From sequence record NC_005066.1: a DNA stretch of 64,000 bases; one strand, given 5' to 3'. Position numbers and translations under genes: made by a program. This stretch comes from Escherichia phage RB49. The notes beneath the pieces were generated by a model that was not told the DNA's origin, did not search any database, and saw only the letters and a list, made by a program, of their open reading frames with translations. The first letter of the stretch is position 1; each line of letters starts with the position of its first letter. Below, one piece after another: positions 847-63,695 of the stretch.

Positions 847-1434
847 CTAAATATCTAACCAAGACAAGTCAGATCCGCCCAAGATTTTTTCGACGGCGGA
901 TCTATTTTCTTGATGATATAAGTTAAAACATGGTATCCCATGTCTACGGGCAACATAAACAGCAATTCGAGTTCCTCCCGAAACAATCCCATTAACTTCT
1001 TTCGCCCAAAATATCACACAATCTACAGGGTCATCAAGTGTCTCACCTAAAACTTGAGCAACATTTCTGGAAAACAGATTTTGCATGTATAACGGTATCG
1101 AACGAGGATTATCATAAACGTGTTCTAATTCATCCATCGCCAGATTTTTTTGTTCTAAGGTTTGCCATGCAATCACATCATGACCGTTATGCTTGTGGTC
1201 ATAAAACTTCCAATTTGGAATGAAAATTTTTCTATAATCTGGATCGTAATACTTCATGAAAGCATTGTCCATACCATAAGCCCCTCCAGAATGCGCTACA
1301 ACGCGATTTTCTGACAATACCCTCCCAATGGTACTAGCCATTATCAAAATGTCGCTAGGCGCTTTTCTAGAGCCTATTAAAGCACATCTACGAAGTGGTT
1401 TTACTCCAAATAGATCTTGTAACTGGTCAAACAT
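847..1434 (-). CDS. SLOG/DprA-like Rossmann-fold protein
   Basis: 195 aa; motifs LIGSRKAP ... VVAHSGGAYGMD ... GGTRIAVYVARRHG resemble the DprA/Smf-SLOG nucleotide-binding fold; GGAGG RBS upstream. Confidence 0.45.
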   Translation of the reverse strand: MFDQLQDLFGVKPLRRCALIGSRKAPSDILIMASTIGRVLSENRVVAHSGGAYGMDNAFMKYYDPDYRKIFIPNWKFYDHKHNGHDVIAWQTLEQKNLAMDELEHVYDNPRSIPLYMQNLFSRNVAQVLGETLDDPVDCVIFWAKEVNGIVSGGTRIAVYVARRHGIPCFNLYHQENRSAVEKILGGSDLSWLDI

Positions 1435-1812
1435 AATATTTCCTCCATAGAAAGCAATATCATACTACAAGTTAATAACAAATACAAGTATCCGCGTAGC
1501 GGAAGCGAGCACAGCGAGCAATAAAACACTTCTAGTAATTGATTAATAAATGTTCGAAACAAATTTTTATTATTCTATAAGATAAGTCTTCGTTTTGATC
1601 ATAATTTAATCATACATGTAAAAACTACACAAAAGGATATCGCTTCGCGAACTCCTACGGAGTATAACATTTGTGTTACAATATGTAGTGATTAATAATT
1701 AACCAAAGATACATTTTCTATGTTCTAAAGATCTTTCTTCGTTTTGATCATAATTTAATCAAACAGTATTAATATTGTGCACATGTAAACTAAAATTATG
1801 TTAATAACAGAT

Positions 1813-1839
1813 ACAAAAAAGCCGTCCCGAAGGACGGCT
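1813..1839 (-). terminator. Rho-independent terminator
   Basis: Hairpin gccgtcc-cgaa-ggacggc followed by a T-run on the minus strand, directly after the stop of the 1848..2285 gene. Confidence 0.6.
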
Positions 1840-1847
1840 AATGTTAA

Positions 1848-2285
1848 TTATTTGTTGATAACGATCTGATTTCGGCGAATGGTAACATTACTCTTAGAGA
1901 TGATCAGATCATCCGGCACTACGTTAGTTTTGTATGGTTGGAAGCGAACAAGCATCTGATTGCGTTTAGACCCTTCCTTAATCTTGATTTCCATCTGGAT
2001 ATTGTTTCCTACGTGAGCAACCGCAATTTCACCTTTATTCTCATAGACCCACTTGCTGGTAACGTCTCCAGCAAAAGCCTTAATAACTTGCAATGCTTCG
2101 TCGTATGCGGTAGAGCTGTGAACTTTCAAAAGGCCAGCCGTAGCAAGACGGGAGCAGGTGATCGCCGGAGATTGCCAAACATCAACATTAATTTGCTCAA
2201 TCAGAGTAACACCGCCATGATCAACTGCTTTGAATGCTTCAAACATTGCCTTTTTCATTGCTACGTGGTTTTTACGGAATTTCAT
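1848..2285 (-). CDS. Hypothetical protein
   Basis: 145 aa ORF, terminator immediately downstream. Confidence 0.5.
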   Translation of the reverse strand: MKFRKNHVAMKKAMFEAFKAVDHGGVTLIEQINVDVWQSPAITCSRLATAGLLKVHSSTAYDEALQVIKAFAGDVTSKWVYENKGEIAVAHVGNNIQMEIKIKEGSKRNQMLVRFQPYKTNVVPDDLIISKSNVTIRRNQIVINK

Positions 2286-2331: not shown

Positions 2332-2715
2332 TCAGGACATTGCCCGTTTGAATGCGTCCATTATAACAGTGTTATTTGGCTTGTCAACACGTTTTTGAAC
2401 TTTATTTTTAAATTTTTTGTTGATGTGGTGTTTACGATAAACAACCTTTTCACGGTTGGCGTAAGCCTCTCGTGCGTCTTTTACCATCAACCATGCCTTA
2501 GCCGCATCTTGTCCGCTGATCCCGCCAATCTTCTTAGCAATATCAACAAAATTAAGACCGTGGTCTTCGCGTAGCATGTAAACCATTAACGCTGTTTTCT
2601 TGTCCATCACTTCGCCCCATTGACGATTAACAGGATAGTGATCAGCACCGGAAACTGGATCATGATAGTGCCAATAAACCGGATAAATGCATTTTCTGAC
2701 TTCCACACATGACAT
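2332..2715 (-). CDS. Hypothetical protein, possible HTH DNA-binding
   Basis: 127 aa ORF; segment LNFVDIAKKIGGISGQDAAKAW resembles a helix-turn-helix. Confidence 0.4.
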   Translation of the reverse strand: MSCVEVRKCIYPVYWHYHDPVSGADHYPVNRQWGEVMDKKTALMVYMLREDHGLNFVDIAKKIGGISGQDAAKAWLMVKDAREAYANREKVVYRKHHINKKFKNKVQKRVDKPNNTVIMDAFKRAMS

Positions 2716-7329: not shown

Positions 7330-7737
7330 TTAGCGACCAGATTCCAGCATACGCAATTCTATAGCATTCTTGATCGCAAAGCCACGAGATTTAACGATAT
7401 CAAGTGCGCGACCAGCAAAATCCATTACCATCTGGTAATATGCAATTTTCGTATCAAGCGGTAAGATCTCGTCGTCTGCTGCCATGACAACTTTCAATTC
7501 TGATTTCTCATATTCAGCACGACACCAGTCATCACTACGGTTAGTGTAAAAGTCAAGACGATTTTTCATAGCCTTTTTCTTTTTAGCCTCAAGAGCAATC
7601 GTCTCTCTTTTCGCCTCGCTGTAAATCCTTAACCACTTTGAGTATACTACCGGATTATTCAGCGCCTCCCATTGCAACTTAGTCGCATCGATCTTCATGT
7701 CAGCTTCTAATTGTTCTTTCAAATCGTTTAGGTCCAT
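7330..7737 (-). CDS. uvsY: UvsY recombination mediator protein
   Basis: 135 aa; matches T4 UvsY as recalled (TKLQWEALNN, KSRGFAIKN). Confidence 0.85.
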   Translation of the reverse strand: MDLNDLKEQLEADMKIDATKLQWEALNNPVVYSKWLRIYSEAKRETIALEAKKKKAMKNRLDFYTNRSDDWCRAEYEKSELKVVMAADDEILPLDTKIAYYQMVMDFAGRALDIVKSRGFAIKNAIELRMLESGR

Positions 7738-7784
7738 AATATCCCCTTATTCACACTAAGACCTATATCATATCACACACAAAA

Positions 7785-8183
7785 TCACTTTGCAAGTCTT
7801 ATGCGTAGTTGTTCAAGATCATCTGGGTTGTCTATTACTGAAAAGTAGATTGATACTATGATTGAGTTATCGTCGTACTGCGGAGTTACTTCTACTGTCA
7901 GGTTTCGGACCCGTGGTTCATAGTTTCGGATCGCCTCATTGATGTTTTTTGATAAGGTATCCACCGTCAGTGGGTTCATGTTCTCAAACAAAGATTTATT
8001 GAGATCGCATCCAAACAGTGGATCAAATGGACGAGATCCCTTGCGAGTAGTCACGATCAGTAGAATAGAATCCTTAACCGCTTTAATCCCTATGTTCTTT
8101 TTAACGTCGTTATTCCACGATCTGGATATATTGAGATCCAAATCAGTATACATCTGATTAATAGTTGCCATGTTATACCTCAA
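7785..8183 (-). CDS. 25: gp25 baseplate wedge protein (lysozyme-like fold)
   Basis: 132 aa; TTRKGSRPFDP-FGCDL ... RNYEPR ... SVIDNPDD matches T4 gp25 as recalled. Confidence 0.85.
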   Translation of the reverse strand: MRYNMATINQMYTDLDLNISRSWNNDVKKNIGIKAVKDSILLIVTTRKGSRPFDPLFGCDLNKSLFENMNPLTVDTLSKNINEAIRNYEPRVRNLTVEVTPQYDDNSIIVSIYFSVIDNPDDLEQLRIRLAK

Positions 8184-8809
8184 AGAATTTTAAGGAAACT
8201 GGATAGACCTGATAATGAATATACACCAGATTCCCCGCATTCGCACTTGATCGGTACTGCCAGCGTGATTTGATTTCTTGTTAGCTCGTCGATCACTTCT
8301 TCCACTTTATCCGTGGTAAGCATATCCAGCACGCGGTCAAAGTCCTGTGCGTTCAGGTCGTCTATATTGAATTGCTGATCGCCGATCACGATATATTCGA
8401 TACATGCAATTACCATCTGCATAATATCAACATCTTCTGTAAACTTAGGTTGACGAAACTTGATTTTTACTTGTCCTAAGTCCAGAATATACGGTTCAAC
8501 TTCTGGTATCTGTGTGCGTGAAACATCAAGAGAGTATACTTTCTCTTTATTGCATACACCACACACCCAAGTAGCATCAAATTTCATCTTATTGAGGCTG
8601 TGACACCATAAGAGAAGAAAAATATATTCTGCTTCGCATTTCTCTAGCTCTAATGCATTGATCCCCGTACATTCATGTATGATCTCTATAACAACCTCTG
8701 ACAGCTTGCCAGTCTCTTTTGCTGCTACCAGTTTTTGAAATTCGCCGAAGGTGAAAGCACGGGCGTGTATCAACTTTTCGCCTAATTGGATCTTGAAAAA
8801 GTATTGCAT
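8180..8809 (-). CDS. 26: gp26 baseplate hub subunit
   Basis: 209 aa ORF in the syntenic position between gp25 and gp51, divergent from gp51; T4 gp26 is about the same size. Confidence 0.6.
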   Translation of the reverse strand: MQYFFKIQLGEKLIHARAFTFGEFQKLVAAKETGKLSEVVIEIIHECTGINALELEKCEAEYIFLLLWCHSLNKMKFDATWVCGVCNKEKVYSLDVSRTQIPEVEPYILDLGQVKIKFRQPKFTEDVDIMQMVIACIEYIVIGDQQFNIDDLNAQDFDRVLDMLTTDKVEEVIDELTRNQITLAVPIKCECGESGVYSLSGLSSFLKIL

Positions 8810-8851
8810 AATAAAACACCCTTTATAAACACATAGAATTATTTAGTATTT

Positions 8852-14043: not shown

Positions 14044-14975
14044 TGTTTGATTTAAATGACTTTAACGAACAAGCCGCTAACCTTGACTTTCAGCGATCGA
14101 ACTTATTCAGTGTGGCATTTGCCACCACTCCAAGTAATAAGACACAAGCGATCCTAGAAAGTATGGGTGGTGCGGTATATGATATTATACCAAATGCATT
14201 AAATGACTATTTCGGGATTACTCGTGGTGATTATACTGACGCATTAACAAATCTTGCTGTACAGGGTGTTAGGCGTGCTGTTGATTCATCTGGTGTCAAA
14301 AAGTATCTTTTAGGTGCAATGTCATCCCGCGTAGTTCAATCTCTTCTGGGGCAATTTGATGTTGGTACGTATGCGCTTGACTGGTTCAATATGGCATATA
14401 AGACAAGCGGTCTTCTGGTGTATGCTGTTAAGGTTCCAGAAAACAGATTGAATTATGAAATGGACCGTAACCACAATGCGCCAAACATTCGAATTACCGG
14501 ACGTGATTTTGATCCGCTTGTATTGAGCTTTAGAATGGACTCTAGCGCATCAAACTATAGAGCAATGCAGGATTGGGTTAACTCAGTAGAAGACCCCGTT
14601 ACAGGGCTTCGTGCGCTTCCTGTTGACGTTGAAGCAGATATTCAGGTCAACTTACATAACCGAATGGGAGTTCCTCACACGATCATGATGTTTAATGGTT
14701 GTGTTCCTGTTGGTGTGAGTGCACCGGAATTAAACTATGAAAACAACAACGAAATCACAACATTCGATGTTACTTTTGCGTATAGGACTATGCAAACTGG
14801 TGCTGTAGGAGAGCAAGCCGCGCGAGAATGGATTGAGGATAAGGCAATAAACGCAATAACAAACACTTTCGGTAATAATTTACTTGATAGTGGGTTATCT
14901 GCTGCTGGTAATGCTTTATCGCGTCTAAATGGCGTTGGTGGGCGTGTGGTGAATACTGTTACTAACTGGTTCTGA
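14043..14975 (+). CDS. 54: gp54 baseplate tail-tube initiator
   Basis: 310 aa; position and size; ATGA start/stop overlap with gp48. Confidence 0.65.
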   Translation: MFDLNDFNEQAANLDFQRSNLFSVAFATTPSNKTQAILESMGGAVYDIIPNALNDYFGITRGDYTDALTNLAVQGVRRAVDSSGVKKYLLGAMSSRVVQSLLGQFDVGTYALDWFNMAYKTSGLLVYAVKVPENRLNYEMDRNHNAPNIRITGRDFDPLVLSFRMDSSASNYRAMQDWVNSVEDPVTGLRALPVDVEADIQVNLHNRMGVPHTIMMFNGCVPVGVSAPELNYENNNEITTFDVTFAYRTMQTGAVGEQAAREWIEDKAINAITNTFGNNLLDSGLSAAGNALSRLNGVGGRVVNTVTNWF

Positions 14976-53952: not shown

Positions 53953-54114
53953 CATTTTTAACAAGCCGATCCATGTGGTCGGCTTTATTTTTTATACAGT
54001 TGGTTAAAATGTAACCAAAACGAAGAAAGATCTTTAGAATAATAGAAAATTTGTTTCGGTTAAAAATTAGTCAGTGCCTACGGCACGTCGCGAAGCGATA
54101 TTTTGTTAACATTC

Positions 54115-54122
54115 TATAAATA
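54115..54122 (+). promoter_or_regulatory. T4-type late promoter box TATAAATA
   Basis: Exact TATAAATA about 34 bp upstream of the gene 36 start. Confidence 0.55.
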
Positions 54123-54155: not shown

Positions 54156-55646
54156 ATGGCAGATTTGAAACATGGATCTACTGTAGGCGGATCTCCCATT
54201 TGGACGCAAGGAAACTTGACGATCCAGCCAGCGGGGGATCAGCTTTTCTACAAAGGTCATAAAATCTATACCGCTTTTGATAGACCTTCGGCTACCGATT
54301 TTGATGCTGTTAGTGCATCCGAAGGTGGAACATTTCAAAAGCAAGTTCATTTCGAGGAAGGTTTAAGCGTAGGTAGCGCATCGGCTGGAGAAACCAAAAA
54401 GAATGGTATCTTTAAAGGCCAGAGTGATGCTGCTAATTTTGACGGCGTAAGCTGGGGTTTGCATTCATGGAAGTCAATCGGCTTTGTTAATGCCCGTGAT
54501 GGCGTTATTATGGCTTATATTGACACCACAACGGGCGAATTTAAGTCTAAAGGGACTATCGAAGGGACAACCATTAAAGATACAGGTCAACGCGTCTATA
54601 GCCCTGTTAATAAACCAACGAATAATGATTTAGATTTGGTGTCTCGTCGCGGTGATACCCTAACAGGAACATATAATTTAAACACTGTCACAGTTAAACT
54701 ATCGGTTGATTCGAAATTAATTGCAAGGGAACGTGATTTAATTAATTTTGATGCGACTAAGATCTATTATGGTAACGTTCTTGATACGTTGGTATTCCGA
54801 AGTAAAGATGAGCCTACCATTTTTGTTAATGGCAAAGAAGGTCGTTTTTATCACACCAACAATAAACCGACTAAAGCCGATGTTGGACTAGGCAATGTCA
54901 CCAATGATGCACAGGTTAAACGTGCTGGTGATATTATGGAAGGTAACTTGCAAGCGCCTAGAATGTTGGCGACAAACGATCCTGCTGGTCCTAATGAATT
55001 GGTTCGTTTGAGCTACTTTGAGAGAAAATCAATGGTAGCAAATCCAACCATCATTGGAAACGTTGATTGGAACACTCTTATTAATCGCGGTATCTATCGT
55101 GTGGAAAATGCTGGGTCGGGCACTAATAAACCGTCTGATAGCTATTATAATGGCGTTTTGATGGTATATCGCCCAGAAGATGCGGTCGGTACTCGTCGAA
55201 TTGTTCAGGTGTATTATCCTGAATCTATTGACCATCCGATGTGCTGGCGTTCGTGTTCTAATGAATCATGGACTGCATGGAACTATGTAGATCACCGTAA
55301 ATTAGCCGATATTCGCTATGTTAACGTAACTGGCGATACCATGACAGGACCGTTAACTGTTCCGGCTGCAAACGGTGTTAGAACAGCTAAAACTAACTAT
55401 AACGGGGATAACTGTTATGCGGCGTTAAGCGGTGCTGATGGTACTGCTATGATTCACCGCATTAGTGATATTAAAGGGACCGAAAAGCTGGGGATCACCC
55501 ACGACTCAAAGGTCGTGTTTTTCCGTTCTAGAAACAATACTCAAACCGTGGACCGCTATCAGCTTTATCATGAAGGTAATAAACCTACTCCGGCTGATGT
55601 TGGAGCGGTTCCACTTAATGCGGTGATTGATTTTGGTACTTTCTAA
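54156..55646 (+). CDS. 36: gp36 long tail fibre distal connector (enlarged)
   Basis: 496 aa; N-terminus MADLKHGSTVGGSPIWTQGNL matches the T4 gp36 N-terminus as recalled; longer than T4 gp36. Confidence 0.7.
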   Translation: MADLKHGSTVGGSPIWTQGNLTIQPAGDQLFYKGHKIYTAFDRPSATDFDAVSASEGGTFQKQVHFEEGLSVGSASAGETKKNGIFKGQSDAANFDGVSWGLHSWKSIGFVNARDGVIMAYIDTTTGEFKSKGTIEGTTIKDTGQRVYSPVNKPTNNDLDLVSRRGDTLTGTYNLNTVTVKLSVDSKLIARERDLINFDATKIYYGNVLDTLVFRSKDEPTIFVNGKEGRFYHTNNKPTKADVGLGNVTNDAQVKRAGDIMEGNLQAPRMLATNDPAGPNELVRLSYFERKSMVANPTIIGNVDWNTLINRGIYRVENAGSGTNKPSDSYYNGVLMVYRPEDAVGTRRIVQVYYPESIDHPMCWRSCSNESWTAWNYVDHRKLADIRYVNVTGDTMTGPLTVPAANGVRTAKTNYNGDNCYAALSGADGTAMIHRISDIKGTEKLGITHDSKVVFFRSRNNTQTVDRYQLYHEGNKPTPADVGAVPLNAVIDFGTF

Positions 55647-61924: not shown

Positions 61925-62683
61925 TTACTTGCAAACGTATTGATCTACATCAATTGCGCCACCGAATGTAGGATGACGTTTTTCGAATCGAATAGTTCCG
62001 TCGTTTGGTTCGAAAACGGAGTATTCATATAGATCTTTCTTGCCAACATTCTTATAAAACCCGCCTTTAGTCATAACGGTTTCTTGTACGTTTGCTTTGT
62101 GTACGTTGTATTCATCAATGTATACAAAATCAACCATCTTCCCATTTTTAATGGTTACTTTAAGATCTCCTGGTTGGTTTCCATATTTTGCATACAGTGG
62201 AGCTTCTTTAATTTTGGTGGAAATTCCATCTTTCATACTCCACTCATAACGAACGGTGCATTGATAGGTAAAAGTTTCGACCTTCGGTTCTTCCACCACT
62301 TTTTCTTCCTGTTTCGGTTGTTCTTCTTCAACCTTCGCAGAAGTCTCTGAATCGCTTTCTGACGCGGTTTCTTCTTTAGGTAATACATTCATCAAGTTTT
62401 GGATTTGAGCGTTGTATACAGCCTCCAGTGGCTGAATCTGCCCGATATTGATCATTGTATCACGAACAGTTTTATTCCAGTTGCGTTGCTCTTGTTTAAG
62501 CGACGGGTCAATCTTAACAGCCTTAACATATACTTCATGAAGTTTAGAATCAAGTGCGGAGATAGACTCATTAGCACAAATAAACTTCTCTGATTTGGTA
62601 GTAGCTTTAGCGCAATCAAAGGACGCAGCGTTAGCACCGAAAGCAGTAGCAGAAAGAACGATAGCAGCGATAATGTTTTTCAT
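61925..62683 (-). CDS. Secreted LprI-like (DUF1311) protein with Cys-containing C-terminal beta domain
   Basis: 252 aa; signal peptide MKNIIAAIVLSATAFGANA; FDCAKATTKSEKFICANESISALDSKLHEVY ... QRNWNKTVRD matches the DUF1311 pattern. Confidence 0.5.
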   Translation of the reverse strand: MKNIIAAIVLSATAFGANAASFDCAKATTKSEKFICANESISALDSKLHEVYVKAVKIDPSLKQEQRNWNKTVRDTMINIGQIQPLEAVYNAQIQNLMNVLPKEETASESDSETSAKVEEEQPKQEEKVVEEPKVETFTYQCTVRYEWSMKDGISTKIKEAPLYAKYGNQPGDLKVTIKNGKMVDFVYIDEYNVHKANVQETVMTKGGFYKNVGKKDLYEYSVFEPNDGTIRFEKRHPTFGGAIDVDQYVCK

Positions 62684-62746
62684 AATATATTCCTCATTGT
62701 TTTGTCTTGATGGGAGTATCTTACTACTCCCTTAATCCGGTGTCAA
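62684..62746 (-). promoter_or_regulatory. Early promoter cassette, GGGAGTA class
   Basis: TTGACA-17 bp-TAAGAT with GGGAGTAGTAAGATACTCCC inverted repeat. Confidence 0.5.
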
Positions 62747-63256: not shown

Positions 63257-63487
63257 CTATTTTAAATTATTTTCGACCTTCACCCATTCCGCGTATTCTT
63301 GCGCGGCTACTTTCGGATTTAGTCCGTCTTCGTACATTGCATCAAGTAATTCTTTGTCGGTGGGCTTATACCCTAGATAAGCCTCCACCTGATTTTTCCA
63401 AATTTTATACCAGTTCATATTATCACCAGTCAAGAGCGCGTGTCTCTGCGTCTTCCCATGCTTGATCCATAACAGCCTTGAAAACAT
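63257..63487 (-). CDS. Hypothetical small protein (start may be the internal Met at 63418)
   Basis: 76 aa ORF; upstream part overlaps the 63423..63695 gene. Confidence 0.4.
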   Translation of the reverse strand: MFSRLLWIKHGKTQRHALLTGDNMNWYKIWKNQVEAYLGYKPTDKELLDAMYEDGLNPKVAAQEYAEWVKVENNLK

Positions 63488-63695
63488 ATTCTAAAGTATC
63501 ATCTTTAGAGAATCCGAAGACCTTAGACGGAATATCTTCAATTGCTACTCCCGCAACTTCTGCATTACGCGCTTGGCAATAATGCAACTCTAAGTTATCG
63601 AGATAGCGACCGCCTAATTTCTCCATATCATCCCAGCATTTCCAGTAGCCTACTTTATCTGCAATTGCTAACACTTTGCTGTTTTTGTTGCTCAT
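63423..63695 (-). CDS. Hypothetical protein
   Basis: 90 aa from the internal Met (MSNKNSKVLAIADKV...) with GGAGAATC RBS and promoter cassette upstream. Confidence 0.5.
   Translation of the reverse strand: MSNKNSKVLAIADKVGYWKCWDDMEKLGGRYLDNLELHYCQARNAEVAGVAIEDIPSKVFGFSKDDTLEYVFKAVMDQAWEDAETRALDW

Follow-up and report, generated by a model that had tools for sequence, protein, structure and literature searches.

What occupies the 413-bp, AT-rich gap at positions 1435-1847 of the 64,000-nt stretch of the Escherichia phage RB49 genome (NC_005066.1) analysed here, and why does the same 26-mer occur in it twice? We refer to the whole stretch as the window; its position 1 corresponds to position 97331 of phage Phi1. 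A preliminary description of the gap treated the 26-mer as a local two-copy direct repeat and suggested three possibilities for the region: a small RNA, some regulatory element, or repeated sites at which a protein binds. We find that the 26-mer is the best-conserved arm (the 5′ arm on the gene-sense, minus strand) of a 74-nt element predicted to form a hairpin, and that this element is part of a composite intergenic cassette of ~110-135 nt, in which a long AT-rich hairpin is followed by one or two GC-rich mini-hairpins and then by a T-rich tail. The two local copies are indeed present, but they are not merely local, since they belong to a genome-wide family of four with a relative in an Escherichia coli prophage. 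The reading that we favour, and to which we would assign a probability of roughly 0.35, is that this is a transcribed intergenic hairpin cassette which may act on RNA 3′-end formation or processing and which may have been spread by recombination.

The exact 26-mer, TCTTCGTTTTGATCATAATTTAATCA, is present at 1587-1612 and at 1736-1761, the second copy lying one base away from the 1737-1762 originally given, and the measured spacing of 149 bp agrees with the ~150 bp described. When up to 3 mismatches are allowed the window holds 2 matches, compared with 0.00 expected from 100 shuffles. The small hairpin noticed near 1492 proved to be TCCGC-GTA-GCGGA at 1491-1503, and 1435-1847 is, as described, free of any open reading frame (ORF) of at least 60 aa; the longest one there is 53 aa (TTG start, 1401-1562, minus strand) and begins inside one hairpin arm. 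What had been overlooked were a strong terminator at 1820-1839, a 17-nt direct repeat, the palindromic nature of the repeat units and the further copies elsewhere in the genome. When a whole Krischvirus genome was searched with a covariance model of the 74-nt unit (R1), exactly four copies, which we call A, B, C and D, were recovered at 70-85 bits, with the next best match at 18 bits. The copies and the features around them are as follows, with sigma-70-like promoter sites scanned at a threshold of at least 9 of 12 hexamer positions.

1540-1613, minus strand: copy A, 74-nt palindrome (R1 70.2 bits, E = 2.4e-11), with the 26-mer at 1587-1612 in its 5′ arm
1491-1503, minus strand: terminal mini-hairpin of copy A, sense TCCGC-TAC-GCGGA, then TACTTGTATTTGTTATT; terminator-like in the scan
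1689-1762, minus strand: copy B, 74-nt palindrome (R1 77.9 bits, E = 5.7e-13), with the 26-mer at 1736-1761 in its 5′ arm
1627-1676, minus strand: GC module of copy B, a 7-bp closing stem ACACAAA/TTTGTGT around CTCC-GTA-GGAG (1652-1662) and TCGC-GAA-GCGA (1640-1650)
54000-54073, plus strand: copy C, 74-nt palindrome in the gap between tail-fibre genes 35 and 36 (R1 85 bits, E = 1.7e-14)
54074-54112, plus strand: GC module of copy C, GTGCC-TAC-GGCAC (54074-54086), GTCGC-GAA-GCGAT (54087-54099) and ATTTTGTTAA; terminator-like
Phi1 62513-62585, minus strand (the strand of gene 3): copy D, upstream of gene 3 and beyond the window
1820-1839, minus strand: intrinsic terminator of the 145-aa gene, AGCCGTCC-TTCG-GGACGGCT then TTTTTT (8 pairs, 6 of them G-C, loop of 4)
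1800-1816, minus strand: 17-nt direct repeat, copy 1, sense TTGTATCTGTTATTAAC, directly after the terminator
1471-1487, minus strand: 17-nt direct repeat, copy 2, TTGTATTTGTTATTAAC, 94% identical to copy 1
1487-1459, minus strand: weak promoter-like site before the DprA-like gene, TTGTAT-17-TATGAT, read by eye (8/12, below the scan threshold)
53963-53985: gene 35 terminator, with copy C beginning 14 nt after it
54115-54122, plus strand: exact late promoter TATAAATA, within 15 nt after cassette C (gene 36 starts at 54156)
847-1434, minus strand: DprA-like gene (PHROG 768), the downstream neighbour of the B-A cassette region
1848-2285, minus strand: 145-aa gene of unknown function, the upstream neighbour of the B-A cassette region

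Each repeat copy is an imperfect, AT-rich palindrome of 74 nt with a GC content of 19-25%, whose terminal inverted repeats are TTGATTAA and TTAATCAA. Copies A and B are 89% identical over 38 nt and 78% identical over ~78 nt (1540-1616 compared with 1689-1765), and in copy A the inverted repeat (I1) has arms of 31 nt that are 71% complementary. In the long hairpin predicted from these sequences, positions 2-8 pair with 68-74 to form an outer stem of 7 bp; a 4x4 internal loop separates this from an inner stem of ~15 bp (13-27 with 49-63), which is capped by an apical region of ~21 nt. The mini-hairpins that follow it all have 3-nt loops (TCGC-GAA-GCGA, CTCC-GTA-GGAG, GTGCC-TAC-GGCAC and TCCGC-TAC-GCGGA), and their stem sequences are wholly different between copies whilst the stem and the 3-nt loop are retained. 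In copies A, C and D the last mini-hairpin, together with its T-rich tail, passes a terminator scan on the sense strand, with stems of only 5 pairs and tails that are interrupted. After the GC module of copy B the sense strand continues with TATCCTTTTGTGTAGTTTTT, and copies B and C have the stretch TCGCGAAGCGATAT in common. GATC (Dam) sites occur in all four copies and are absent from the prophage version.

Each of the four copies shares the strand of its downstream gene (A and B on the minus strand with the DprA-like gene, C on the plus strand with gene 36 and D on the minus strand with gene 3), and this co-orientation implies that the functional strand at A and B would be the minus strand, the complement of the one read in the preliminary description. 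The B-A pair and copy C occupy gaps that run from a terminator to the next gene, with only a weak promoter-like site after A. At the first of these the terminator of the 145-aa gene, which GenBank records also annotate as such, bounds the cassette region upstream, and copy B begins 57 nt past it. The 17-nt direct repeats at 1471-1487 and 1800-1816 enclose the B-A pair and look like an insertion scar between this terminator and the DprA-like gene; the one at 1471-1487 overlaps the -35 hexamer of the weak promoter-like site. Copy D lies in the space that separates gene 3 from the start of the divergent ORF130 and is followed by a late-promoter near-match, TAATAAATA; it alone has a plausible antisense promoter, TTGGTT-17-TATATT, facing ORF130 (read by eye).

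Conservation of the cassette could be judged from its relatives. The first 3 kb of the window match 57 GenBank phages over the full length at 90-99% identity (95-99% in 54 of the 57), all of which are Krischvirus, the RB49/Phi1/GEC-3S group of T4-type coliphages; the gap itself is kept at 95-99.5% identity in 57/57 of these genomes, and the repeat cores are its least variable part. Every one of the 57 carries the element, at ~4 places each and 226 in total, and the four copies are found at the same sites, at three loci, in all of them, with no empty sites and no new insertions. When column variability was computed for copies A and B and their flanks across 11 Krischvirus genomes, 1.4% of columns were variable in copy A (1/74) and 6.8% in copy B, compared with 7-14% in the coding flanks and 35% in the spacer at 1763-1819, so the hairpin cores vary less than the flanking genes. 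The repeats are therefore conserved, and the lack of conservation that the preliminary description named as grounds for refutation is not what the relatives show, which supports the regulatory or structured element that had been among the options first proposed. In G2248 and PHB13 the changes in copy B make it resemble copy C, suggesting gene conversion.

The pattern of variation also bears on the fold. Across 15 distinct sequences, 83.3% of cells are paired in the long hairpin on the sense strand, whilst partners slid out of register reach at most 53%; the antisense strand gives 76.4%, and so the sense advantage is small. Compensatory change is limited to two stem pairs: pair 14-62 is C-G, A-U, G-C or G-U and pair 16-60 is U-G, C-G or U-A. 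Among the orthologues of copy B, the U-G at pair 16-60 has become U-A in one lineage, C-G in another and C-A in none, and in the orthologues of C and D most of the variation is found in the internal loop. On the sense strand, 4/5 types have the long hairpin as their minimum-energy fold, copies A and B among them. A fold into two local hairpins scored lower, with its second helix paired in only 68% of cells.

The only relative of the cassette beyond these phages lies in a prophage. No GenBank phage outside Krischvirus carries the element, and plasmids gave no match. When IMG/VR, metagenome contigs and one genome for each bacterial species were scanned for its pattern, the matches came only from Krischvirus and the E. 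coli prophage, apart from two attributable to chance. The scan of IMG/VR found the element core in ~25 contigs of ~35 kb, which are the chromosomal E. coli prophage; 58 of 5,426 complete E. coli genomes contain it, integrated beside hicAB, and E. coli genomes gave no match other than these prophage copies. The prophage is uncharacterised, and no sequenced phage has a portal protein more than 36% identical to its own. It holds a single copy of the element, 75-81% identical to the phage versions, in the following region.

7588-8837 of locus L007 (equal to 8977-10250 of L035): prophage gene-free region (E. coli O55:H7 DEC5A, NZ_CP038394)

Within this 1.3 kb there are ~7 TAGTGTAGGTTT iterons, further repeated boxes including AAAGTGATTGGTAT (a perfect 38-bp palindrome in one variant), AT-rich stretches, many GC mini-hairpins and a strong sigma-70 promoter, TTGACA-17-TATACT, and from this composition the region is probably an origin or control region. 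One prophage variant (L053) has lost the apical loop between two ATCTTT repeats and kept the stem.

There are further signs of contact between the two groups. Positions 62303-62689 of the window (minus strand, Phi1 ORF262) are, over 387 bp, 96% identical in nucleotide sequence to the 5′ part of the prophage's LprI-family (lysozyme-inhibitor-like) gene. Such identity indicates a recent exchange of DNA, gene fragment included, between a virulent T4-type phage group and the prophage. Beside copy D, Phi1 ORF130.1 (L003 12925-13956) encodes an HNH endonuclease with a CapR domain, and one prophage variant has a homologue that is ~47% identical (L059 ~14074-14301, roughly 4.8 kb from the prophage element), which is another sign of traffic between the groups. 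Beyond the LprI-family gene, a tail-fibre similarity and the HNH endonuclease, no protein is shared between the phage and the prophage parts examined.

In the reading that we favour, the cassettes would be transcribed by read-through from the upstream unit and would act as RNA, each forming, where one transcription unit gives way to the next, a second, hairpin-rich module for 3′ ends, insulation and processing. The long AU-rich duplex with its internal loop would be the kind of substrate that is cut by a double-strand-specific RNase such as RNase III, with which the element is compatible in shape only (7-bp stem, internal loop, ~15-bp stem), whilst the terminal mini-hairpin and U-tail could stop or stabilise the transcript. 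Spread between loci and phages may have occurred by recombination, as proposed for the PeSL cassettes of the same phages. We lean towards action at the RNA level because of the co-orientation with downstream genes, the terminator-like sense ends, the excess of G-U pairs and the positions in terminator-promoter gaps.

Several observations weigh against this. The covariation is drawn from only ~4 lineages that are independent of one another, namely A, B, C/D and the prophage type. Fold energies of -10 to -12 kcal/mol, with z-scores between -1.1 and -2.0, mark the hairpins as weak, and the antisense strand folds about equally well. The preference between strands is slight, with by our own count ~7 independent G-U events for the sense strand and 3 for the antisense, and pairs are broken by some of the substitutions seen in orthologues (in copy A, T16 to A; in copy B, T5 to C). 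Since strong terminators stand upstream of copies B and C, sense transcription of these two would depend on read-through. The prophage copy, which sits beside iterons and is without a U-tail after its mini-hairpins, fits a role at the DNA level better. Lastly, the 5′ arm CAAAACGAAGA and the loop ATCTT are invariant in all versions whilst the 3′ arm varies, which points to recognition of sequence and not of shape alone, and it is probable that something reads the invariant CAAAACGAAGA...ATCTT sequence as well as the hairpin shape.

If one considers that the element may work as DNA, then the palindrome and mini-hairpins would extrude as hairpins or a cruciform, or melt, and would serve replication or recombination, for example as an origin unwinding or priming signal or as a hot spot. 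The prophage copy beside ~7 iterons in a gene-free, origin- or control-like region fits this, as does the near-equal folding of the two strands, and the mini-hairpins include GCGAAGC, which a passage in PMC13037366 describes as forming exceptionally stable DNA mini-hairpins. The several replication origins of T4 have no motif in common and are situated for the most part in late-gene regions, often close to where the transcribed strand switches (PMC3016281); copies A and B lie 0.6 kb from a convergent strand switch and D at a divergent one, but the match to T4 origin positions is loose and covers three loci only. The cassettes resemble T4 oriF and oriG in being AT-rich, easily melted intergenic DNA in late-gene regions at few sites per genome, and differ from the T4 origins in being a conserved palindrome. 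Moreover, oriF and oriG depend on a promoter from which transcription enters the unwinding element (PMC3016281), whereas no promoter reads into any copy here, and on that ground we rejected a T4-type R-loop origin in spite of the AT-rich DNA. The Krischvirus copies also lack an accompanying initiator or iterons, and the composite is polar, with the GC module always on the same side and co-oriented with genes, which a pure DNA palindrome would not require. We regard action as DNA as an unlikely explanation. More doubtful is the bolder proposal of a portable, host-adapted hairpin signal, exchanged between virulent T4-type phage and temperate prophage, that would mark replication initiation or priming, or else of a structured RNA that would engage a host factor through CAAAACGAAGA...AUCUU; were the replication-marking version true, this would be the first sequence-defined origin element of RB49-like phages.

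The cassette could instead be a selfish or near-neutral repeat, either MITE- or REP-like or copied through short homology into harmless terminator-promoter gaps, with its identity kept by gene conversion. Its several copies are confined to intergenic gaps, the 74-bp unit recurs in an unrelated prophage with unrelated flanks, and the homology between phage and prophage starts and stops at the terminal inverted repeats; the 17-nt direct repeat brackets the B-A pair as after an insertion, and the recent exchange of 387 bp and the converted look of copy B in G2248 and PHB13 point the same way. REP/BIME, ERIC and Correia/NEMIS-type MITEs are likewise imperfect palindromes of ~70-150 bp, present in multiple copies in transcribed intergenic gaps, and can affect mRNA 3′ ends or stability. 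Those families, however, run to tens to hundreds of copies, have known or suspected transposases (RAYT, IS) and, in the case of MITEs, target-site duplications, whereas this family is tiny and host-restricted, with four fixed phage copies, no consistent target-site duplication around single copies and no associated transposase. A typical MITE was rejected on these grounds, despite the terminal inverted repeats, as there is also no presence/absence polymorphism. Without selection, or else highly active gene conversion, it is difficult to see why the cores should be more conserved than the neighbouring coding sequence, and a selfish origin seems to us possible but improbable.

Were the cassette an independent small-RNA gene, its product would be a trans-acting RNA of ~110-130 nt terminated by the mini-hairpin and U-tail, in which the unvarying CAAAACGAAGA...AUCUU would serve as seed or protein-binding site. 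The discrete units with terminator-like 3′ ends on the sense strand fit this part of the preliminary description, as do a 24-nt stretch that is invariant across phage and prophage versions and, ~45 nt before the prophage element on its own strand, a promoter-like site (plus strand, 7629-7656, 9/12, extended -10 with TG). Against it, there is no sigma-70 site of at least 9/12 and no TATAAATA upstream of A, B, C or D, where the flanks are not alignable, and half of the would-be seed would be buried in the stem. The window holds no complementary or similar stretch of target length, and the matches in E. coli are only at the prophage copies. A covariance-model search for known RNAs, which the preliminary description had put forward, matched no family in Rfam 15: across 1300-2000 there were weak terminator-based matches only (best 25.4 bits against a gathering threshold of 95), and three prophage loci gave none at gathering thresholds. 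A free-standing RNA of this kind is a distinctly unlikely account. Least probable of all, and by some distance, are operator-like sites for a DNA-binding protein or simple membership of the PeSL promoter-terminator cassettes of RB49 and Phi1. The arms do show dyad symmetry (TTGATTAA...TTAATCAA), these very phages are known to contain PeSLs as repeated intergenic cassettes (PMC2839356), and a PeSL-like perfect sigma-70 promoter lies nearby at 2387-2360. The half-sites of an operator would be expected to be fixed; here they differ between copies yet stay complementary, and it is complementarity and not sequence that is preserved at the differing arm positions, making the repeated binding sites once proposed unlikely. 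The cassette is thus probably not an operator, and the available prophage parts yielded no DNA-binding protein common to phage and prophage.

The PeSLs deserve closer comparison. They are defined by a near-perfect TTGACA-N17-TATAAT promoter and a stem-loop of G-run and C-run (GN-loop-CN) (PMC2839356, Arbiol et al. 2010; PMC4122927, Comeau et al. 2014). In the same phages, both kinds are short, repeated intergenic stem-loop cassettes between transcription units, thought to be spread or shuffled by recombination between copies. PeSLs number ~50 per genome, in hyperplastic regions next to ORFans, whereas the hairpin cassette has 4 copies, is built on a 74-nt AT-rich palindrome and at 2 of its 3 loci stands beside the conserved late structural genes 3 and 36. 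It also has no TTGACA-N17-TATAAT-like site (at least 9/12) on the sense strand in or beside A-D, and its stems are AT-rich or mixed-GC mini-hairpins, such as GTGCC-TAC-GGCAC and TCGC-GAA-GCGA, and not G-run/C-run. RB49-like phages have in it a second class of repeated intergenic cassette, one that lacks a promoter and that also occurs in an E. coli prophage.

The intergenic R sites of T7 and the RNase III signals of lambda are sense-strand hairpins of about two helical turns with an internal loop, present as several related copies between cistrons. The cassette resembles them, in shape alone, as an intergenic sense-strand hairpin of similar length with an internal loop and several related copies; it differs in that T7 sites lie inside polycistronic transcripts and not after terminators, and in that its own hairpins are thermodynamically weak. 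A coding function was rejected as the small ORFs differ between copies and are not conserved. Sites for host factors (IHF, DnaA, ArcA, Tus/Ter and the oriC 13-mers) were also set aside, any match being partial, in one copy only and not conserved. Mimicry of a CRISPR repeat was considered because GTGCC-GTA-GGCAC is similar to the stem of type I-F repeats, but no two copies have the same stem sequence. Promoter searches of both strands, by eye and by scan, found nothing conserved, and a scan for tRNA and tmRNA found none. The literature search yielded nothing about transcriptomes or small RNAs of Krischvirus; the hairpin cassette is conserved and, to judge from the literature searched, undescribed.

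Some further observations concern the surroundings of the copies. The DprA-like and 145-aa genes both come after head-vertex gene 24, and the perfect sigma-70 promoter ahead of the latter (2360-2387, minus strand, TTGACA-16-TATAAT with TG upstream) fits the PeSL class. Just upstream of the DprA-like start, G2248 and UPWr_E1 have a 1-nt indel at 1438-1439, which accounts for the N-terminally extended DprA-like gene in some GenBank records; this extension and the annotated 53-aa ORF (1401-1562) are probably annotation artefacts. In one Krischvirus contig (L012, IMGVR_UViG_3300045988_033703) copy D is followed by a TTGACA-17-TAGATT promoter and different sequence in place of gene 3, and the locus adjoining the cassette is thus a point of rearrangement. 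A weak match to the hairpin model at 63478-63540 (plus strand, 18.4 bits, E = 2.2), intergenic and ~0.8 kb from the prophage-derived fragment, is most likely noise.

RB49-type phages are widely used as therapy candidates and are a reference group for T4-type genome evolution, and PeSLs are the only repeated intergenic cassettes described in them so far. The cassettes reported here occupy three fixed loci, and at two of these the neighbours are essential late genes. Their sharing with a prophage, taken together with the 96%-identical gene fragment, shows that exchange between virulent and temperate coliphages involves non-coding modules in addition to genes. Were the cassette found to control transcript ends, RNA processing or replication initiation, a gap would be closed in the regulatory map of a group that is without the T4 middle-mode system.

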